From Dehalococcoidia bacterium (GTDB taxonomy: Bacteria; Chloroflexota; Dehalococcoidia; DSTF01; JACRBR01), in the NCBI GenBank assembly GCA_021731085.1, contig JAKFYB010000001.1, positions 101,266 through 165,265 on the forward strand: DNA of 64,000 nt. The letters run 5' to 3'. Position numbers and translations under genes: made by a program. Position 1 is the stretch's first letter; each line of letters opens with the position of its first letter. Below are positions 13,902 through 45,948 of this stretch, in pieces. Under the pieces are notes generated by a model. The model was not told where the DNA came from and searched no databases. It was given only the letters and a program-made list of their open reading frames with translations.

Positions 13902-14504
13902 ATGCACCGTATTTCCGCGCCACTGCGCGGCCGCGTGATCGCGCTGGCCGTTTCGATCTCCATCGTAATCACCGCTGCTGGCTGTGGCTCGATCGGGTTC
14001 AACCAGGCGCCAGCGAATGGGTATGTTTGGGGCTCGCAACAGCCGTTGCGCATTGCCGTCATCAACCAAGCCGGGCCGGAGTGGTCTTCGTCGCTACAGT
14101 CGTCTCTGCGGCAGTACGAGGAGGGTGCTGGCGGAAACCTGCAATTCCAGAACACGCCCGACGGCGCGAATATCGTCATCACGGTGAAGACATACACCGA
14201 CACAGCACCGCCGGACCTCGAAGGCTACGACTTTCCGCAGGGCGCAGGTGGCTTCGCGACTGTGTACGACGCGCAGGGTCTCGCGTGCAACTACCCACCG
14301 TCGACGCTGCCGCTCAACTGTTCCGGCGAGATCACCCGCACGGAGATTTGGCTGAACCTCGCTATCCCCGCGGGAAGTGACATAGAAGCGCGGCGCGGCC
14401 GACTGCTGCTCCACGAACTCGGGCACGCGATGGGGCTGACACGCCACGCGCCGACGCTCGACATCGGCATGCTCGAACAACGTTACGGCTGGGAGCACCA
14501 GTAG
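13902..14504 (+). CDS. Small secreted metzincin-like zinc metalloprotease
   Basis: Signal peptide plus the HELGHAMGLTRH motif (HExxHxxGxxH). Confidence 0.6.
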   Translation: MHRISAPLRGRVIALAVSISIVITAAGCGSIGFNQAPANGYVWGSQQPLRIAVINQAGPEWSSSLQSSLRQYEEGAGGNLQFQNTPDGANIVITVKTYTDTAPPDLEGYDFPQGAGGFATVYDAQGLACNYPPSTLPLNCSGEITRTEIWLNLAIPAGSDIEARRGRLLLHELGHAMGLTRHAPTLDIGMLEQRYGWEHQ

Positions 14505-36784: not shown

Positions 36785-36814
36785 TTGACAGCTTCGTTAT
36801 GCCAGCCGTATACT
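36785..36814 (+). promoter_or_regulatory. Strong sigma70-type promoter (TTGACA-18-TATACT)
   Basis: Perfect -35, 18-nt spacer and a 5/6 -10 hexamer. It would drive a ~260-nt leader ending at the terminator at 37050-37077. Confidence 0.5.
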
Positions 36815-36819
36815 CTCGC

Positions 36820-37080
36820 CACATACAGGCGCAGACGCGCAGCAGTAGGTCTGGAAACAGCCACTAGCGAGCCGGTGATGGTGCAAGACCGGCGGCACGA
36901 CCAGATCGAACTCAGCGCCGAGCTGCCGGGGTGAATGTGGCACAGTCGTCCTCGGCTGTGAGACCTAGCCCCGACCGGGTCGCGACCGTTATCACGCTCC
37001 GAGAGTCCTTCCATGGAAGGAAAGAAGGGTGGCACCGCGGGCCTTCAACCCCGTCCCTTTATGAGGACGGGTTTTTTGTT
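36820..37080 (+). promoter_or_regulatory. Candidate T-box riboswitch leader (specifier-loop candidate GAA-CUC-A, Leu) upstream of ilvBNC-leuACD
   Basis: Exact T-box consensus AGGGUGGCACCGCG at 37026-37039, immediately before a canonical intrinsic terminator whose 5' arm (CCCU) can pair with the T-box AGGG in an antiterminator. Stem-I-like helix GGUCUGG/CCAGAUC, distal hairpin 36871-36892. No credible ORF in the interval. Confidence 0.5.
37050..37077 (+). terminator. Rho-independent terminator (CCCGTCC-ctttatga-GGACGGG + TTTTTTGTT)
   Basis: 7-bp GC-rich stem, 8-nt loop and a U6 tract, on the plus strand only. Confidence 0.7.
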
Positions 37081-37419: not shown

Positions 37420-39132
37420 ATGGCAACCCAAGGCAAGATCAAAGGCGCCGAAATCATCATGGAATCGCTCCGCAAGGAGGGTGTCGACCTGATCTTCGGC
37501 TACCCCGGCGGCGCGAACCTTCCGATGTACGACGCGCTGCACAAGTACCCCGACATCAGGCACATTCTCGTCCGCCACGAGCAGGCCGCCGCCCACGCCG
37601 CCGACGCCTACGCTCGCGTCACTGGCAAGGCCGGCGTCTGTTGGGCGACGTCCGGTCCCGGCGCGACGAACCTCGTCACCGGCATCGCCAACGCATGGAT
37701 GGACTCCGTGCCGCTGGTGTGTATCACGGGACAGGTTGTCTCGTGGCTCCTCGGCCGGGACGGATTCCAGGAAGCGGACATCACGGGCATCACCATCCCG
37801 ATCGTCAAGCAGAACTGGCTCGTCCTCAACGTCGAGGACATCGCACCGACGATCGCCGAAGCGTTCCACGTCGCGACGACGGGACGTCCCGGCCCGGTGC
37901 TCGTCGACATTCCACGCGACGTGCAACAGCAACTGTGCGAGTTCGAGTACCCCGACAAGGTCGACATCCCCGGCTACCAGCCGACCGTGCAGGGCCACCC
38001 ACAGCAGATCAAGAAGGCGGCCGCGCTCATCGCCGAGGCCGAACGCCCGCTGATTCTCGCCGGACACGGTGTCGTTATCGCGCGCGCCGCTGAAGAACTG
38101 CAAGAGCTGGCCGAGAAGGCCGACATCCCCGTCATCACGACGCTGCTCGGGCTGGGCGGCTTCCCTGGTTCGCACGAGCTGTACCAGGGCATGCCCGGCA
38201 TGCACGGCATGTACTGGAACAACATCGCGATCCAGGAGGCTGACGTCCTCATAGCGATCGGCATGCGGTTCGATGACCGCGTCACCGGCTCGCTGAAGGA
38301 CTTCGCGCCGAAAGCGAAGATCATCCACATCGAGGTCGATCCGGCGGAGGTCGGCAAAAACGTGCCGACGGCAATCCCGATCGTCGGCGACGTGAAGGCT
38401 GTTCTGCAGCAGTTGCTGCCGCACGTTGAGCGGGCGCGTCACGACGATTGGCGCAACTGGTTCCGCGAGATGCGCCGCGACCACCCGTCGATCGCCATCC
38501 CGGAGACGGAGAAGATCCTGCCGCAGTACGTCATCAAATCGATCTACGATCGATCGCCCGGCGACGCCTACTATGCGACCGGCGTTGGCCAGCACCAGAT
38601 GTGGGCGGCGCAGTACTTCTGGGGTGACAATCCGTACTCGTTCGTCACGTCCGGCGGGCTCGGAACGATGGGATTCGAAGTGCCGGCGGCGATCGGCGTG
38701 CAGTTCGCGCGCCCGCAGAGCACCGTCTGGTCGTTCTGCGGCGATGGTGGCTTCCAGATGACAATGGAGGAGCTGGCGCTCTGCCGCGAGTACGAACTGC
38801 CGATCAAGTTCGCCATCATCAACAACCACTTTCTCGGCATGGTGCGGCAGTGGCAGGACACCTTCTACGACCACAACCTCTCGCAGGTGAAGATGTTCCA
38901 GCCGGACTTCGTGAAGCTTGCGGAGGCGATGGGCATCGAGGCGATCCGCGTCACGGACAAGGCCATGGTGCCGACGGCGATCGACGCAGCGTTGCAGCAC
39001 CCCGGCGCCGTCCTCATCGACTTCCACGTCGAGCACGTCGAGGACTGCTACCCGATGATGCCGCCTGGCGTCAGCCTCTCCGACACGATCGACCAGCCGC
39101 CGGTCGCCCAACTGCAGGAGGCGCTGCGATGA
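37420..39132 (+). CDS. ilvB: Acetolactate synthase large subunit (biosynthetic type)
   Basis: ThDP-enzyme motifs throughout and an N-terminus (MATQGKIKGAEII) typical of AHAS. AGGAGA RBS. The ORF-track start at 37297 looks like an upstream artefact. Confidence 0.9.
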   Translation: MATQGKIKGAEIIMESLRKEGVDLIFGYPGGANLPMYDALHKYPDIRHILVRHEQAAAHAADAYARVTGKAGVCWATSGPGATNLVTGIANAWMDSVPLVCITGQVVSWLLGRDGFQEADITGITIPIVKQNWLVLNVEDIAPTIAEAFHVATTGRPGPVLVDIPRDVQQQLCEFEYPDKVDIPGYQPTVQGHPQQIKKAAALIAEAERPLILAGHGVVIARAAEELQELAEKADIPVITTLLGLGGFPGSHELYQGMPGMHGMYWNNIAIQEADVLIAIGMRFDDRVTGSLKDFAPKAKIIHIEVDPAEVGKNVPTAIPIVGDVKAVLQQLLPHVERARHDDWRNWFREMRRDHPSIAIPETEKILPQYVIKSIYDRSPGDAYYATGVGQHQMWAAQYFWGDNPYSFVTSGGLGTMGFEVPAAIGVQFARPQSTVWSFCGDGGFQMTMEELALCREYELPIKFAIINNHFLGMVRQWQDTFYDHNLSQVKMFQPDFVKLAEAMGIEAIRVTDKAMVPTAIDAALQHPGAVLIDFHVEHVEDCYPMMPPGVSLSDTIDQPPVAQLQEALR

Positions 39133-39704
39133 GTGGTCGTTTGCACACGATCGTCGCGCTCGTCGAGAACCGGCCCGGCGTCCTGAACAAGATCGCCAGC
39201 AAGTGGCGCCAGCGTGGCTTCAACATCGAGAGCCTGACCGTCGGCCACAGCGAGACGCCCGGGCTGTCGCGCATGACATTCACCGTCGATGGCACCACGA
39301 ACGACATCGAGCAGGTCACGAAGCAGCTCTTCAAGGTGATCGAGGTCGTGAAGATCAGCGACGTCACCGAGCAGGAGACCGTCGCCCGCGAATTGGCGCT
39401 GATCAAAGTCTCGACGACGAAGGAGACCCGCAGCGCCATCATCGAGATCGTCGACATCTTCCGCGCGAAGATCGTCGATGTCGCAGTCGACTCGCTCGTC
39501 GTCGAGACGACCGGCACGGAGGACAAGGTCGATGCGCTGATCAGCATGCTGACCCCGTATGGGTTGAAAGAGCTGGTGCGCACAGGTCGCGTCGCGATGG
39601 TTCGCGGCGGCACCTCGACGGTAGGCGCGCCCCAACGCAACGGCCAGGAACGGCACTTCAAGCCCGCCGGCGAAGGCAAACCCAAAGTCGGGAGTCTAAT
39701 CTAG
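39129..39704 (+). CDS. ilvN: Acetolactate synthase small (regulatory) subunit
   Basis: ACT-domain N-terminus (LVENRPGVLNKIASKWRQRGFNIESL). ATGA overlap with the ilvB stop. ~25-aa C-terminal extension. Confidence 0.85.
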   Translation: MSGRLHTIVALVENRPGVLNKIASKWRQRGFNIESLTVGHSETPGLSRMTFTVDGTTNDIEQVTKQLFKVIEVVKISDVTEQETVARELALIKVSTTKETRSAIIEIVDIFRAKIVDVAVDSLVVETTGTEDKVDALISMLTPYGLKELVRTGRVAMVRGGTSTVGAPQRNGQERHFKPAGEGKPKVGSLI

Positions 39705-39851: not shown

Positions 39852-40850
39852 ATGCCAACGATGTACTACGAGAAGGACGCTGACCTCGGCCTGTTGAAGG
39901 GCAAGACCGTCGGCGTGATTGGATTCGGATCGCAGGGCCACGCGCACGCCCAGAACCTGAACGACAGCGGAATCGACGTCATCGTCGGCCTCTACCCAGG
40001 GTCGAAGTCGTGGGCGAAGGTCGAGGCAGCGGGCCTGCGCGTCGGTACCGTGCGTGAGGTAGCGGAAGCCGCTGACCTCATCATGCTGACTGTGCCGGAC
40101 CAGGTCGCGAAGCAGATCTACTACGACCACATCGCCGACGGCCTCAAGCCCGGCAACATGGTGCTGTGGGCCCACGGCTTCAACGTGCACTACGGACAGG
40201 TCGAGTCGCCGGAGGACGTCGACGTGACGATGGTCGCGCCGAAGGGCCCCGGGCATCTCGTGCGCCGCGTATACACCGAGGGTGGCGGCGTGCCGGCGCT
40301 CATCGCCGTCCACCAGAACGCGACCGAGAACGCGAAGCAGATCGCGCTGGCGTACGCCAAAGGCATCGGCGCGACGCGTGGCGGCGTGCTTGAGACGACG
40401 TTCAAGGAAGAGACCGAAACAGACCTCTTCGGCGAGCAGTCCGTCCTCTGCGGCGGTACGACGCAGCTCGTGAAGAGCGCCTTCGAGACGCTCGTCGAGG
40501 CCGGCTACCAGCCGGAGGTCGCGTACTTCGAGTGCATGCACGAGCTCAAGCTCATCGTCGACCTGATGTACGAGGGCGGCATGGAGTACATGCGGTACTC
40601 GATCAGCGAGACGGCTGAGTACGGCGACTACACGCGCGGCCCAGTCGTTGTCGATGCGCATGTGAAGGACAACATGAAAAAGGTGCTAGGCCAAATCCAG
40701 GACGGCACCTTCGCGAAGGAGTGGATCCTCGAGAATCAGGCAGGGCGCCCGAGCTTCAACGCGCTGCGCCGCCAGAACGCCGCACACCAGATTGAAGAAG
40801 TCGGCGCGGAGCTGCGTGGCATGATGCAGTGGCTGAAGAAGAGCAGGTAG
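39852..40850 (+). CDS. ilvC: Ketol-acid reductoisomerase (class I)
   Basis: [13 protein letters not shown] Rossmann motif and full-length similarity to KARI. Confidence 0.9.
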
Positions 40851-40857
40851 GAGTCGC

Positions 40858-41223
40858 ATGAAGTCGCGCGTGGTGTTGCTGTTGTGTGGATTGGTTGTGG
40901 CGGCGGCGATGGCTGCTGCGTGCGGCGGCGGATCCGACGAGAACCTCGGAGGACAGGCGGCTCAGGCTGCAGCGCGATTCTTCGATCAGGAAGCCGCTGC
41001 TGGCAATCTGCCGGAAGGTACGCTCGTCCGACCACGGGGCTCGAAAGCCGTCGTCGAGCTCGACAGCGAGGATGCCGACGCCCGATTCTGTGTGGAGTTC
41101 GAGTACATCCGCGCGCAAACGCCCTTCGATCAGCACGTACGGGTGTACGTGATGACGCTGAACGATGAGGCATGGAGTTTCGAGGTGGTGAACCCGGACG
41201 GCACGTGTGAAGGTGTGGCCTAG
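40858..41223 (+). CDS. Hypothetical lipoprotein
   Basis: Signal peptide with lipobox AAACGG; 121 aa, sitting between ilvC and leuA. Confidence 0.4.
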   Translation: MKSRVVLLLCGLVVAAAMAAACGGGSDENLGGQAAQAAARFFDQEAAAGNLPEGTLVRPRGSKAVVELDSEDADARFCVEFEYIRAQTPFDQHVRVYVMTLNDEAWSFEVVNPDGTCEGVA

Positions 41224-41367: not shown

Positions 41368-42912
41368 ATGGTAGACAAGGTACTGATCTTCGATACGACA
41401 CTGCGGGACGGCGAGCAGTCGCCCGGCGTCGCCCTGACCGCCGCCGACAAGATGGAGATCGCGCGCCAGCTCGAGAAGCTGGGCGTGGACATCATTGAGG
41501 CCGGCTTCCCGCGCACGTCACCCGGTGACTTCTCCGCGGTCGAAGCGATAGCGAAAGAAATCAAGAACTCCCAGATCGCTGGACTCGCACACGCTAACCC
41601 CGAGGCGGTCGATGCCTGTTGGGACGCCGTGAAGGTCGGCGTCGCTCCGCGCATCCATGTCTTCCTGTCGAGCAGCGACATTCACATCATGCACCAGCTC
41701 GCCAAGGACAAGGAGACGGTGCTGGAGATGGCACGGACGATGGTCGCCCGCGCGGCAGGCTACTGCTCCGACGTCGAGTTCAGTCCGATGGACGCGACGC
41801 GCAGCGACCGCCAGTTCGTGTACTGGATGCTCGAACAGACGATCGCGGCCGGCGCGACGACAATCAACATCCCGGATACCGTCGGCTACACGGTGCCGGA
41901 GGAGTTCTACCAGTTCATCATCGACATCAAGAACAACGTCCCGAACATCGACAAGGCGCGCATCAGCGTCCACTGCCACAACGACCTCGGCCTCGCCGTC
42001 GCAAACTCGCTGTCTGCCGTGAAGGCGGGCGCGCGACAGATCGAGACGTGCATCAACGGCATCGGTGAGCGTGCAGGTAACGCCGCGCTCGAAGAAGTCG
42101 CGATGGCGATCAAAACGCGCCGCGATTACCTCGGCGTCGAGACGAACATCAAGACGGAGGAGCTGTACCGCACCAGCCGCATGGTCGCGAACCTCACCGG
42201 TATGAGCGTGCAGTCCAACAAGGCGATTGTCGGCCACAACGCCTTTCGCCATCAATCCGGCATCCACCAGGACGGCGTCCTGAAGATGCGCGAGACGTAC
42301 GAGATCATGAACGCGCAGGACATCGGCTGGCCGACATCCGGCGGCGAGATCGTGCTCGGTAAGGTGTCCGGACGCCACGGCTTCAAGTCGCGTCTGGAGG
42401 AGATGGGGTACTTCCTGTCCGAGGAGGAGCTGTCCCGCGCCTTCATGGCGTTCAAGGAGTTAGCCGACAAGAAGGCCGAGATCGACGACCGCGATCTGGA
42501 GGCGATCGTTGCCGACAAGCTGCGGACCGCGCAGGAGGTCTACCACCTCGATTTCGTACAAGTGCAGTGCGGCGACCACGCCGCGCCGACTGCGACGGTT
42601 CGCGTCATCGCGCCGGACGGCTCGATTCGCGCCGACGCCGCGCTCGGCACCGGCCCGGTGGACGCCGTCTACAAGGCGATCAACCGCATCATCCAGGTCG
42701 AGAACGAACTCACCGAGTACCACGTGAAGAGCGTGACCGAGGGCATCGACGCGCAGGGCGAAGTGACGATCCGCGTCGAGGGCGGCGGTCGCAGCTACAC
42801 GGGACGTGGCGCCGACACAGACATCATCGTCGCCTCAGCGAAGGCGTACATGAACGCCCTTAACCGCATGATTTCGGCAGAGAACCCGCAGGACGCGGAA
42901 GTAAGGGTTTGA
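41368..42912 (+). CDS. leuA: 2-isopropylmalate synthase
   Basis: [16 protein letters not shown]-terminal catalytic motif, HxH motifs, and a C-terminal LeuA regulatory domain. Confidence 0.9.
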
Positions 42913-42970
42913 GGAAGGATCCTTTACTAGCGCTAGAAAAGTAAGGTATCATCATCGATCCAAGGAGGCG

Positions 42971-43315
42971 GTGATGCCTAGGAAGAATGAAGAAAACAAG
43001 GTCCGGGAAGCAAAGCTAGAGTACACCGCTGACCGACGACCGCTGTACCCGGAGATGGCTTTCACGAAGCTGAGTTCAAAAAACCAGATCACGCTTCCGG
43101 TCGCATATGTTCGCGATCTTGGTCTTAAACCGGGGGATGAGGTCGTCCTGTGGCTGGACAAGGACCACATCACAGTGGAGCGCCGACTGTATGGCAAGGA
43201 ACTGCTCGACAGCCTGCAGGGCTCGATGAAGAGCGGCGAATGGAGCACGAGAGAGGGTACGTTGGCATGGATCAAGAACATCCGTGACGAGTGGGAGCGT
43301 GAAATACCGCTTTGA
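42971..43315 (+). CDS. vapB: AbrB/MazE/SpoVT-family antitoxin (VapB-like)
   Basis: SpoVT_AbrB swapped-hairpin motif (QITLPVAYVRDLGLKPGDEV). The gene is markedly lower in GC than its flanks. Confidence 0.6.
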   Translation: MMPRKNEENKVREAKLEYTADRRPLYPEMAFTKLSSKNQITLPVAYVRDLGLKPGDEVVLWLDKDHITVERRLYGKELLDSLQGSMKSGEWSTREGTLAWIKNIRDEWEREIPL

Positions 43316-43826
43316 CCAATTGCTTGACGACCTCAAGGCCGTGCGGTCAGCGGTGCTCGACACAAGCGCGTGCGTTTACTTCCTGAACGAAGTAGAACCT
43401 TGGGCGACACTCGTTCGCGTCGTACTGGAACGTGGTGATCGTGGGATCCTTCGCATCATCGTGCCGAGCATCGTGCATCTGGAGTTACTTGCCAAGGCAT
43501 TTCAGGAGCAAAACGAACTTGAGCGTAAGCGGGTCGGCTCCTTTGTGCGTGGCACGCACTTCATCCGTGAGGCACTCTTCGACTTCCAGACGATGCAAAC
43601 ATCGGCTGAGGTCAGGGGGAGGCTACGGTTCAAGGTGGCAGATTCTATCGTCGTCGGCACGGCGTGCGTCGCAGGTGTCGAGGCGTTGATTGGTAACGAC
43701 GGGGCGTTTCGCCGGCTCCGGATCTCGCCACCGCCATCCCTCAGCACCCTGGACATAGCGGCAGGCCTGCCGCGGTACATCCATCTCGACGAGTACATTG
43801 AAGGCGATACAACTGGATTGGACTGA
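43284..43826 (+). CDS. vapC: PIN-domain ribonuclease toxin (VapC-like)
   Basis: Acidic residues in PIN positions (VLDTSA ... IGNDGAF). Overlaps the antitoxin gene; the exact start is uncertain. Confidence 0.6.
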   Translation: MTSGSVKYRFDQLLDDLKAVRSAVLDTSACVYFLNEVEPWATLVRVVLERGDRGILRIIVPSIVHLELLAKAFQEQNELERKRVGSFVRGTHFIREALFDFQTMQTSAEVRGRLRFKVADSIVVGTACVAGVEALIGNDGAFRRLRISPPPSLSTLDIAAGLPRYIHLDEYIEGDTTGLD

Positions 43827-43829
43827 TAC

Positions 43830-45230
43830 ATGCCGAAGACACTCTCTGAAAAGATCTGGGACGCCCATCTCGTCCGGCGCGAGGACGGGAAGCCGGATCT
43901 GCTCTACATCGACCTTCATCTCGTGCATGAGGTCACGTCAGCGCAGGCGTTCGATGGACTGCGTCTCGCGAACCGCAAGGTGCGCCGGCCGGATCTCACG
44001 CTGCTGACCGTCGACCACAACGTACCGACGGCTGACCGCGACAAGCCGTGGTCGGACCCCCTGTCCGTCGCTCAGGTCGCGGCCATCAGCAACAACGCCG
44101 ATGAGTTCGGCCTGACGTACTTCGGCGTGAACGACCGCCGCCAGGGAATCGTTCACGTCGTCGGGCCGGAGCAGGGGCTCACGCAGCCCGGCATGACGAT
44201 CGTCTGCGGCGACAGCCACACATCCACCCACGGCGCGCTCGGCGCGCTCGCGTTCGGCATCGGTACGTCCGAGGTTGAGCATGTACTCGCGACGCAGACG
44301 CTTCCGCAGGGGACACCGAAGACCATGGCCGTCGAGGTCAACGGAGAACTCGCGTTCGGCGTGACCGCCAAGGACGTGATTCTTGCGATCATCCGCACGA
44401 TCGGCGTCTCCGGCGGCATCGGCAGCATCATCGAGTACCGCGGCGATGTCATTCGCGGCTTCTCGATGGAGGGCCGCATGACGGTCTGCAACATGTCAAT
44501 CGAGGGCGGCGCCCGCGCCGGTCTCATCGCGCCGGACGAGACGACGTTCGCGTACGTCGAGGGGCGCAACTACGCGCCCAAGGGCGCCGATTGGGAGAAG
44601 GCGCTCGACGACTGGCGCGCGCTCCCGACCGACGATGGGGCCGAGTTTGATCGCGTCGTCGAACTCAAGGCCGAGGAGATCGAGCCCTGCGTAACGTGGG
44701 GTACGACGCCGGCACAGAGCGTCAACATCAAGGGCCGCGTGCCCGACCCGAACGGCATGGAAGACCCGCGTGCGCGTGAACTCGCCGAGCGCTCCCTGAC
44801 GTACATGGACCTCAAGCCGGGCACCGCGATCGAAGACATCCCCCTCGACCGCATCTTCCTCGGCTCGTGCACGAACGGGCGTATCGAAGACCTTCGGGCA
44901 GCCGCCGAGATCGTGCGCGGCAAGAAGACGGCGTCGACGCTGTCGGCGATGGTGGTGCCAGGCTCAGGCCTCGTGAAGGCGCAGGCGGAGCAAGAGGGTC
45001 TCGACAGGATCTTTATCGACGCTGGCTTCGACTGGCGCGACGCCGGCTGTTCGATGTGCCTTGGCATGAACCCTGACATCCTGCTACCCGGCGAGCGTTG
45101 CGCATCGACCTCGAACCGCAACTTCGAAGGACGGCAGGGCCCAGGCGGCCGCACACACCTCGTCAGCCCGCAGATGGCCGCCGCCGCCGCCATCGCCGGC
45201 CACTTCGTCGATATCCGCGAGTGGAAGTAA
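43830..45230 (+). CDS. leuC: 3-isopropylmalate dehydratase large subunit
   Basis: Aconitase-family motifs and the Fe-S cysteine ligands ([15 protein letters not shown]). Confidence 0.9.
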
Positions 45231-45348: not shown

Positions 45349-45948
45349 ATGGAACCTGTACGCAAGATTCACGGCAAGGCACTGCCCCTCCCGCGCGCTG
45401 ACATCGACACGGACCAGATCATCCCCGCGAAGTACCTCAAGCGCATCGAACGCACGGGATTCGGCGAGTTCGCGTTTGACGCCTGGCGCAAGGACCCCGA
45501 TTTCGTGCTCAACGACCACCGTTACGACGGTGCGGAGATCCTCATCACCGGCCCGAACTTCGGCTGCGGCTCATCGCGCGAGCATGCGCCGTGGGCGCTG
45601 CAGCAGATGGGCCTCAAGGCGATCATCGCGCCGTCGTTCGCCGATATCTTCAAAAACAACTGCGCGAAGGTCGGACTACTGACCGTCGAACTGCCCCAGG
45701 ACAGCATCGACCGCCTGATCGCGCGCGCTGAAGACTCTCCCGGCTGGGAGATGGAGGTCGATCTTGAATCACAGACGGTGTCGCTCGGCAACGGCAAGTC
45801 GCGCGAGTTCGACATCGACCCGTTCGTGAAGCACTGCCTGCTCAACGGCCTCGACGACATCGGCCTCACCCTCGCCAACGAAGGTGACATCACCGCGTAT
45901 GAGTCATCGCGACCTGCGTACAAGCCACAAACAGCGCCCGCTGTTTAA
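45349..45948 (+). CDS. leuD: 3-isopropylmalate dehydratase small subunit
   Basis: Aconitase swivel-domain signatures (GPNFGCGSSREHA). ATG at 45349 preferred over the upstream GTG at 45334. Confidence 0.85.
   Translation: MEPVRKIHGKALPLPRADIDTDQIIPAKYLKRIERTGFGEFAFDAWRKDPDFVLNDHRYDGAEILITGPNFGCGSSREHAPWALQQMGLKAIIAPSFADIFKNNCAKVGLLTVELPQDSIDRLIARAEDSPGWEMEVDLESQTVSLGNGKSREFDIDPFVKHCLLNGLDDIGLTLANEGDITAYESSRPAYKPQTAPAV

Follow-up and report, generated by a model that had tools for sequence, protein, structure and literature searches.

A 64,000-nt stretch of DNA from a Dehalococcoidia bacterium (assembly GCA_021731085.1, contig JAKFYB010000001.1, positions 101,266–165,265 of the forward strand), referred to here as the window, carries an ilv–leu operon in which a predicted toxin–antitoxin (TA) module, vapBC, lies between leuA and leuC. 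A gap of 917 nt (42913–43829) runs from the leuA stop (42912) to the leuC ATG (43830) and is filled by two overlapping open reading frames (ORFs) on the + strand. The operon order is ilvB-ilvN-ilvC-orf121-leuA-vapB-vapC-leuC-leuD, with leuB not included, and the identities of LeuA, LeuC and LeuD are backed by NCBIfam equivalog models as well as Pfam. The initial annotation, made from the sequence of the window, had described a VapB(AbrB/MazE)–VapC(PIN) pair separating leuA from leuCD; the pair lies where it had been placed, both ORFs score above the cut-offs of the Pfam models proposed for checking them (PF04014 and PF01850), and all descriptive elements of that annotation are confirmed in the sequence. 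Judged from these profile matches, the module is a VapBC pair of the AbrB-antitoxin class. The genes of the operon are as follows (coordinates are those of the window; related loci are given below by L numbers and PIN protein clusters by P numbers).

37420–39132, + strand: ilvB, ATG start (ORF with family match)
39129–39704, + strand: ilvN (ORF with family match)
39852–40850, + strand: ilvC (ORF with family match)
40858–41223, + strand: orf121, lipoprotein-like (ORF between ilvC and leuA)
41368–42912, + strand: leuA (ORF; NCBIfam, Pfam)
42974–43315, + strand: vapB, 113-aa antitoxin (Pfam PF04014)
43299–43826, + strand: vapC, 175-aa PIN-domain toxin (Pfam PF01850)
43830–45230, + strand: leuC (NCBIfam, Pfam)
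45349–45948, + strand: leuD (NCBIfam, Pfam)

The antitoxin ORF (GTG 42971 or ATG 42974 to 43315) matches the Pfam MazE_antitoxin model PF04014 at 29.4 bits (cut-off 24.7) and reaches 27.0 bits against the NCBIfam AbrB model TIGR01439, slightly below its cut-off of 28.3. A Shine-Dalgarno sequence (AAGGAGG, 42962–42968, + strand) stands 5 nt ahead of ATG 42974. The protein comprises a charged N-terminal extension (residues 1–30), an AbrB/MazE swapped-hairpin domain (approximately residues 31–70) and a C-terminal region with the pattern W..E....W....R..W.R, which is the putative toxin-binding region. The AbrB core and the C-terminal region are kept in 11 aligned sequences, and the family is marked by an N-terminal extension with a K..EA...Y motif before the AbrB core and by the C-terminal pattern W..E.I.AW...R..W.R.

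The PIN ORF (starts at 43284 or GTG 43299, end at 43826) matches Pfam PF01850 at 29.5 bits (cut-off 23.6). The GTG 43299 start is backed by homologues and gives a 17-nt overlap of vapB with vapC; an exact look-up of the 180-aa form starting at 43284 was empty, the 175-aa form from GTG 43299 being the one on record. Residues D21, E62, D115 and D134 (175-aa numbering) are invariant in 10 sequences with identity down to 22%, and a C-terminal tail of ~35 aa ends in the motif P.Y[IV]HLD[DE]Y. The AlphaFold2 model, built from an alignment of ten sequences, has a mean pLDDT of 91.4 with alternating strands and helices. In a Foldseek comparison of this model with the PDB, VapC toxins ranked first (target-normalised TM up to 0.79), with VapC2 of Rickettsia felis (3zvk) as the top match and Shigella VapC (3tnd) and Mycobacterium tuberculosis VapC11 (6a7v) and VapC15 among the other leading matches; the 32 PDB matches at E ≤1e-3 are mostly VapC toxins or PIN-domain proteins, and a profile search of PDB sequences with the PIN family returned VapCs only. 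Characterised VapCs cut tRNAs or the 23S sarcin–ricin loop (PMC5175351), and by analogy the VapC of the window would be a Mg-dependent PIN endoribonuclease acting on a tRNA or on rRNA (the 23S sarcin–ricin loop) that translation requires. The pair looks functional, to judge from the intact catalytic residues, the predicted fold and the substitution ratios given below. Growth arrest by the toxin, its neutralisation by the antitoxin and RNase activity are predicted, with purifying selection (dN/dS 0.10–0.23) as indirect support.

Predicted regulatory signals around vapBC

The following predicted signals lie at the head of the operon and around the two genes.

36785–36814, + strand: operon promoter-like site, TTGACA-18 nt-TATACT (consensus scan, 11/12 matches; putative function)
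36823–37061, + strand: T-box leader of the ilv–leu operon (Rfam RF00230, 110.4 bits; gathering 93)
37050–37071, + strand: T-box terminator hairpin followed by a T-run (terminator scan)
42922–42941, no strand assigned: 20-nt near-perfect palindrome CTTTACTAGCGCTAGAAAAG, putative VapB operator (9/10 pairs; overlaps the -35)
42923–42952, + strand: vapBC promoter-like site, -35 TTTACT (42923–42928), 18 nt, -10 TATCAT (42947–42952) (scan)
43824–43832, + strand: vapC stop TGA, 3-nt spacer and leuC ATG, with likely translational coupling into leuC (sequence)

The T-box, directly downstream of the first promoter-like site, is the sole Rfam element in the whole window, and its specifier is probably CUC (Leu), as read from GAA-CUC-A in the cmscan alignment. 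T-boxes are also found upstream of ilvB in L085, L009 and L011, while an Rfam RF00230 scan found none at gathering score in L084, L088, L101, L105 and L107.

Between 36500 and 46300 only two + strand promoter-like sites were found, one ahead of the T-box and one in the leuA–vapB spacer. The palindrome that had been described as a possible operator just before vapB holds up: the reported string is located at 42921–42946, where its arms differ by a one-base bulge, and within it the 20-nt palindrome covers the -35 of the module's own promoter-like site. The chance of such a palindrome in a 60-nt spacer is ~0.001 by a rough binomial estimate. A strict search of the spacer for perfect 7-mer inverted-repeat arms found none, because of the bulge and a mismatch, and a separate repeat search did recover the palindrome. 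Half-sites AGTAAGG occur at 42900–42906, within the last leuA codons, and at 42940–42946, and CCTTTACT occupies 42921–42928. Inverted repeats based on AGTAAAGG/CCTTTACT are seen again in L091 and L101 (in the latter as AGTAAAGGAA-N10-TTCCTTTACT), and other strong inverted repeats lie over the promoter in L109 and L111 (in the latter with 14-nt arms around the -35). By-eye reading of the leuA–vapB spacers of L091, L101, L111, L088, L089, L099 and L109 gave a comparable -35/-10 pair in each, with a strong inverted repeat over or beside it in most of the seven. This upstream layout is the usual one for a self-repressed type II TA promoter, and VapB would be the repressor; R. felis VapB2, also of the AbrB type, binds its own promoter at an imperfect palindrome (PMC3326315).

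A separate arrangement was observed in L102 (777), L107 (5474) and L108 (1537), where the vapB ORF starts at or ≤3 nt from the leuA stop (TAATG in L102) and, with no spacer promoter, seems to be translationally coupled to leuA. A TTGACA/TAAGGT promoter considered in these three loci was dropped, as the conserved VapB N-terminal motif K..EA...Y makes the stretch coding.

The terminator scan found no convincing + strand terminator between leuA, vapBC and leuC; there is one weak match inside vapB, and the 11 sites found compare with a chance expectation of 6.1 ± 2.6. Together with the placement of the pair, this agrees with the earlier prediction that vapBC shares a transcript with the leucine genes, and both co-transcription with the leu genes and coupling to leuC appear likely from the gene layout. 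The PIN stop is followed by the leuC ATG after 3 nt in the window and in L002, 2 nt in L003, 11 nt in L091, 17 nt in L088 and 26 nt in L089; in L178 the PIN stop overlaps the leuC start as ATGA, and in L099 the PIN ORF (1007–1555) overlaps the putative leuC start (1552).

The leuA–leuC junction in relatives

The initial annotation had regarded the pair as splitting an otherwise contiguous leuA–leuC block and had proposed a comparison with close relatives. That comparison was run and does not bear out the contiguous block, the junction being held by homologous modules in relatives. Six long-type PIN clusters (P0001, P0003, P0004, P0128, P0129 and P0137) were traced with PIN similarity as the only guide. 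In all of them leuC is immediately downstream of the module, and the upstream flank of PIN-traced clusters is leuA wherever visible (L001, L089/L090 and L091–94). L001, a Logan contig, is identical to the window across the junction, in L002 and L003 the ATG after the PIN stop opens a LeuC N-terminus, L089/L090 carry the module at the junction together with 21 further similar places, and L091–94 have the LeuA C-terminus upstream and the LeuC N-terminus downstream of the module. The PIN protein of L178 is ~41% identical to the nearest PIN in hand and has a VapB C-terminus upstream. A seventh cluster, P0002, has a gene layout compatible with a leu context, and P0131, a more distant relative of 148 aa, forms a free-standing pair with a 75-aa antitoxin, flanked by unrelated genes.

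Searches with the flanking genes extended this set. A 187-kb JGI contig (L088, LeuC 88% identical) carries MazE and PIN genes between leuA and leuC, and in a metagenome scan with the LeuA C-terminus the module follows leuA in 8 of 13 informative loci with LeuA ≥74% identical (present in L099, L100, which is L088, L101, L102, L107, L108, L109 and L111; absent from L098, L103, L104, L105 and L110). Both flanks were seen in L088/L100, L089/L090 (with the 21 further places), L091–94, L099, L101 and L109, and one flank is visible in L002, L003, L178, L102, L107, L108 and L111. The two closest LeuC relatives, at 91% identity (L084; L085–87), lack the module. LeuC relatives bearing names are Dehalococcoidia or Chloroflexota metagenome-assembled genomes (MAGs), and the upstream gene order ilvBNC-orf121-leuA is also found in L084, L085, L088 and L089. 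A scan of genome contigs with LeuC gave only distant relatives (≤72%) among the matches listed, which were used as an outgroup; in these outgroup Dehalococcoidia (LeuC 65–72%) the leuA–leuC junction is uninterrupted, with spacers of 23–187 nt.

In a sister group (LeuA 76–79%), the order in L107 (5474–7538) is leuA, vapBC, an ORF resembling acyl-CoA dehydrogenase and then an archaeal-type leuC, and in L110 and L104 leuA is directly followed by an acyl-CoA dehydrogenase-like ORF or another unidentified ORF, before an archaeal-type leuC. Retention of the TA pair after leuA in L107, where the downstream gene differs, suggests that the module is anchored to the leuA side.

Two junctions without an intact module contain recognisable remains of it. 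The 97-nt leuA–leuC spacer of L085 ends in ATCGACCTGGACGACTACATTGAGGAAGAACCGCAGAAGGGCTGA, which translates to IDLDDYIEEEPQKG followed by a stop, the PIN C-terminal tail; this remnant can be aligned to the PIN gene 3′ ends of the window, L002, L003 and L091, and the P0126 C-terminus (...HIDDYIDEEPQKD) is almost the same. The 369-nt gap of L103 holds an ORF of 105 aa that matches the C-terminal half of the PIN protein of L109, the closest flank relative of L103, at 49% identity (E 2e-19), and L103 lacks both vapB and the N-terminal catalytic residues. These remnants imply that at least two of the lineages now without the TA pair descend from ancestors that had it, the module having since been deleted, and on this sequence evidence the empty state is derived in these cases. 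In L084 the leuA–leuC spacer is a clean 25 nt. The TA-less 148-nt spacer of L098 (4139–4288) holds two copies of a GTCATCCTGAGCG(G/A)AGC repeat, which looks more like a dispersed short repeat element than a TA scar.

We found no credible target-site duplications or flanking direct repeats around the module, no homologues in tblastn searches of 72,556 plasmids and 50,697 phages, and no match to the PADLOC defence families at E ≤0.01 for either protein; among the signs of a mobile cassette, only an atypical base composition was present. GC content is 0.547 in vapB, 0.580 in the PIN gene and 0.466 in the leuA–vapB spacer, against 0.632 in leuA, 0.661 in leuC and 0.635 in the whole window. The low-GC dip that had been pointed out is therefore real, while the 52–55% originally given for it is too low for the genes, which are nearer 55–58% (flanks 0.63–0.66). 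GC content at third codon positions (GC3) is 0.67 in vapB and 0.68 in vapC, against 0.87 and 0.85 in leuA and leuC, a value of 0.67 falling within the low end of the other window genes. The GC3 of the TA genes is below that of the flanks in all seven loci measured (difference 0.03–0.20), which indicates a lasting property of the module instead of a sign of recent arrival. The overall GC of the TA genes is uniformly 0.55–0.59 in the subtype of the window (window, L091, L002 and L003) and near the host value (0.63–0.68) in L088, L089, L099, L101 and L109. Low GC is thus a standing trait of the module or subtype and no mark of recent arrival, and the finding of the same insertion with host-like GC in these five relatives is what the initial annotation had named as evidence for an ancestral module.

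Origin and role of the module

The proteins of the module have diverged far more than their neighbours. Between subtypes, the flanks, compared over the C-terminal 150 aa of LeuA and the N-terminal 60 aa of LeuC, are 76–97% identical, with corresponding values of 35–50% for VapB and 23–45% for PIN. Two pairs are closer, namely the window and L091 (VapB 70%, PIN 53%) and L088 and L089 (VapB 79%, PIN 81%), and the two pairs that rank closest by their flanks also rank closest by their TA proteins. Full-length homology and the family-specific VapB and PIN features are common to all junction alleles. Between subtypes the toxin diverges faster than the antitoxin (matrices of the window, L088, L089, L091, L099, L101, L109 and L108), which is the reverse of the expectation for type II systems. 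A word-indexed search with PIN gave four relatives only, an artefact of the word filter; a PIN profile search gave 15 matches, with ten close clusters followed by a drop to generic PINs of ~150 aa, and an exhaustive HMMER search of 1.84 billion representatives gave 40 clusters at E ≤1e-30 and 945 at E ≤1e-10, with the tail motif P.Y[IV]HLD[DE]Y in nearly all top matches. The PIN family is larger than the word-indexed search implied.

Ratios of nonsynonymous to synonymous divergence (dN/dS, NG86) for L088 and L089 are 0.10 for the PIN gene and 0.16 for vapB, against 0.046 for leuA and 0.062 for leuC, with dS values of 1.13 (PIN gene), 0.82 (vapB) and 0.76 and 0.94 (flanks); for the window and L091 the ratios are 0.11 (PIN gene) and 0.23 (vapB). 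By these estimates, vapB and vapC are under purifying selection that is two to six times more relaxed than that on their neighbours.

We consider it probable that the pair is a functional type II VapBC module and a long-term resident of the leuA–leuC junction in the Leu T-box ilv–leu operon of a Dehalococcoidia clade, and not a recent insertion. The module was most likely acquired once near the base of such a clade and then inherited, with quick divergence and occasional loss. Expression probably follows two routes, one by read-through from the operon promoter past the Leu T-box and the other from the module's own sigma-70-like promoter in the leuA–vapB spacer, where an AbrB-type VapB dimer, with VapC as co-repressor, would be expected to bind the palindrome and repress the promoter. 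The 17-nt overlap of vapB with vapC and the 3-nt gap between vapC and leuC make translational coupling of all three genes probable, and leuCD would also be served by transcripts that start at the vapBC promoter. The VapB C-terminal region would block the VapC endoribonuclease. As the module sits within an operon that senses tRNA-Leu, the condition most likely to alter its expression and the VapB:VapC balance would be leucine limitation. The initial annotation had raised amino-acid starvation as a trigger; a role in leucine starvation is possible, and the Leu T-box upstream gives the idea something concrete to rest on. That the module has been retained for so long under purifying selection is a hint that its wiring may matter, as is the occurrence of unrelated TA families (ParE, MNT-HepT and HicB) in leu-operon spacers of other Dehalococcoidia.

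Several observations weigh against this interpretation. Some of the loci were reached by way of LeuA or LeuC, which tilts the sample towards a leu context, and contexts are known for ~12 of ~40 related clusters at 50% identity, with members all from uncultured Dehalococcoidia known from sequence alone. The vapBC promoter has only 9/12 consensus matches. PIN dS between the window and L091 is 3.5 (saturated), far over the flank dS of 0.9, and outside the two closest pairs TA distances do not track flank distances (Spearman 0.02, Mantel p 0.45), so that strict vertical descent is not demonstrated and cassette exchange between relatives is possible; the Mantel test is itself uninformative, since all deep pairs are saturated. 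The module has been lost at least three times (L084, L085 and L103) and is dispensable, ‘addiction’ being no bar to loss, and such repeated clean loss argues against an indispensable role.

Alternatively, the junction could be a permissive site at which related VapBC alleles were swapped between related genomes by homologous recombination through the conserved leuA/leuC flanks, or a recurrent landing site at which they were captured repeatedly; the alleles would then be older than or independent of the flanks. The contrast between PIN identities of 23–45% and flank identities of 82–88% between subtypes, with no rank correlation, is in line with this explanation, as are the high PIN dS between the window and L091, the patchy presence of the module among close relatives and the unrelated TA families in leu-operon spacers elsewhere (ParE in L126, MNT-HepT in L080 and HicB in L081). 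However, the junction alleles all belong to one family sharing the VapB N-terminal extension and the PIN tail motif, flank and TA proximity coincide in the two closest pairs, the TA dS of L088 and L089 equals their flank dS, no recombinase or repeats are present, and strong codon bias in the flanks (GC3 0.85–0.95) may depress flank dS. We regard cassette exchange or recurrent capture as unlikely.

A little less likely again is a module domesticated as a brake or regulator in leucine starvation, in which VapC might cut tRNA-Leu or ilv-leu mRNA, or in which VapB or the vapBC promoter might govern the expression of leuCD without involving the T-box. The position kept over long divergence with purifying selection, the Leu (CUC) T-box on the operon and the tight junction with leuC would all fit such a role. 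So would the convergence of four TA families on leu spacers in the class, but this was counted without a baseline for TA modules in other operons of these genomes. M. tuberculosis VapC11, which is among the closest structural matches, cleaves tRNA-Leu(CAG/GAG), yet the similarity of the window toxin to VapC11 is no closer than to tRNA-fMet-specific VapCs, and no sequence feature points to a given RNA target. VapB and VapC contain 12% leucine, against 5.6–7.9% in LeuA and LeuC, but such a content is unremarkable for high-GC bacteria. The repeated loss of the module without other visible change in the operon also speaks against a regulatory role. The most specific form of the proposal, in which the leu-operon VapBC is a selected brake on leucine supply, with VapC cutting tRNA-Leu (for example the GAG isoacceptor read by the CUC T-box) or ilv-leu mRNA and, through its transcription behind the Leu T-box and its translational coupling to leuC, feeding back on translation and on operon read-through, and with the four TA families as products of convergent selection, is slightly more doubtful still.

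Recent horizontal acquisition, in which a foreign low-GC VapBC cassette was put into a contiguous leuA–leuC pair in this genome or its immediate ancestor, appears very improbable. This was the origin favoured by the initial annotation, and a GC of 0.55–0.58 against 0.63–0.66 in the flanks, the absence of the module from the two closest LeuC relatives (91%; L084 and L085) and the rarity of PIN relatives in the word-indexed search would agree with it. It is already largely refuted by the homologous modules at the same junction in many diverged relatives, by the remnants in the TA-less relatives L085 and L103, which make the empty state derived, and by a GC3 that is below that of the flanks in seven of seven loci; the searches for target-site repeats and for plasmid or phage homologues were also negative. 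A decaying or inactive relic, no longer a working TA pair in this genome, is scarcely credible, for although GC3 is lower than in the neighbours, evolution is fast and decay is seen in the relatives L103 and L085, neither ORF is interrupted, the Shine-Dalgarno sequence is good and the starts overlap, none of the four catalytic residues has been lost, dN/dS is 0.1–0.23 and the fold is predicted confidently.

Chromosomal TA pairs are usually viewed as mobile, scattered and disputed in function. If the module is a long-term resident, one VapBC lineage has held a single spot in an essential tRNA-Leu-sensing operon while its proteins diverged to ~23% identity, and neither its low GC nor its absence from the nearest relatives was, even taken together, a sign of recent transfer, which calls for caution where such features are read in that way. 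With a hard-wired link to a T-box, the locus would offer a natural system for asking whether amino-acid starvation signals act on TA modules, and it defines a VapBC subfamily with an extended VapB N-terminus and the VapC tail motif P.Y[IV]HLDDY.

Known systems and other genes in leu operons

The VapBC2 locus of R. felis is a free-standing TA pair and is not known to be part of a biosynthetic operon. Like the module of the window, VapBC2 (PDB 3zvk) has a two-gene architecture with a PIN toxin and an AbrB/MazE swapped-hairpin antitoxin, and the binding of VapB2 to an imperfect promoter palindrome (PMC3326315) has a counterpart in the 20-nt palindrome over the -35 of the window. Identity is only ~16% and, unlike VapBC2, the window VapB has a 30-aa N-terminal extension and the window VapC a ~35-aa tail with P.Y[IV]HLD[DE]Y. 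We know of no M. tuberculosis or enterobacterial VapBC module fixed in an amino-acid operon. VapBC11 and VapBC15 of M. tuberculosis and the VapCs of Shigella and Salmonella share with the window the PIN fold and the four acidic residues, by profile and structure matches. The M. tuberculosis and enterobacterial VapCs are tRNases, of which VapC11 cuts tRNA-Leu(CAG/GAG) and tRNA-Gln (PMC5175351).

Full-text literature searches turned up no account of a TA pair within a leu/ilv or T-box operon; in the literature searched, VapC in Dehalococcoidia appears only in a defensome survey, and a VapBC subfamily that combines an extended VapB N-terminus with the VapC tail is not described. As loose analogues, type II TA modules lying directly after a housekeeping or stress gene and co-transcribed with it are known from Escherichia coli (relA-mazEF) and Bacillus subtilis (ndoAI-ndoA upstream of the sigB operon), where TA expression is tied to the host operon. 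These differ from the window in having a MazF toxin and, as far as is known, in lying outside amino-acid operons, with no T-box and no translationally coupled biosynthetic genes after them. The B. subtilis ilv–leu operon places an ilvBNC–leu cluster behind a Leu-specifier T-box, as in the window, and is not known to carry a TA pair; in contrast to it, the order in the window is ilvBNC-orf121-leuA-vapBC-leuCD, without leuB. The module is unusual, as far as gene order and sequence comparison indicate, in that it has kept its place in a biosynthetic operon under T-box control across subtypes with as little as 23% identity, lies almost directly against leuC and encodes proteins with extensions peculiar to the subfamily.

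Other genes were observed at related positions. The orf121 product (40858–41223, + strand; 121 aa) has a lipoprotein-like signal, MKSRVVLLLCGLVVAAAMAAACGG, and no Pfam match, and is an odd passenger in an amino-acid operon; unannotated ORFs of similar size (121–132 aa) stand at the same position in L084, L085, L088 and L089. The leuA–leuC junction of L126 (2562–3055; JGI Ga0315280_10040037), a more distant, Dehalococcoidia-like contig, carries an 80-aa ORF and an 84-aa ParE-family toxin (PF05016, E 2e-12). A group with LeuA at 60–70% identity and an archaeal-type LeuC (33% identical) has a ~134-aa membrane ORF between leuA and leuC (L112, 5532–5945, and equivalents in L115, L119, L129, L139, L157, L163, L171 and L177), which in L112 matches the Pfam MgtC family.

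Between leuC and leuD, a Dehalococcoidia MAG (L080, 4129–4799) carries a nucleotidyltransferase and HepT (HEPN) pair (MNT-HepT), L081 (1499–1702) a HicB-like antitoxin ORF and L064 an ORF that looks GIY-YIG-type, by appearance and without a Pfam scan. The same position in a Dehalococcoidia chromosome (L011, 8430–9170) is taken by a tandem pair of partly duplicated ORFs whose C-terminal halves are identical (...AEQRA.EKGMEKG...EFNEPPPSLDDE), followed by a cytochrome-c-type-looking ORF that is also found in L017. The closest GTDB representative (L004) has a c-di-AMP riboswitch (14264–14414, − strand; RF00379, 74 bits) at a distance of ~6 kb downstream from the leu genes; this element is unrelated to the vapBC module.

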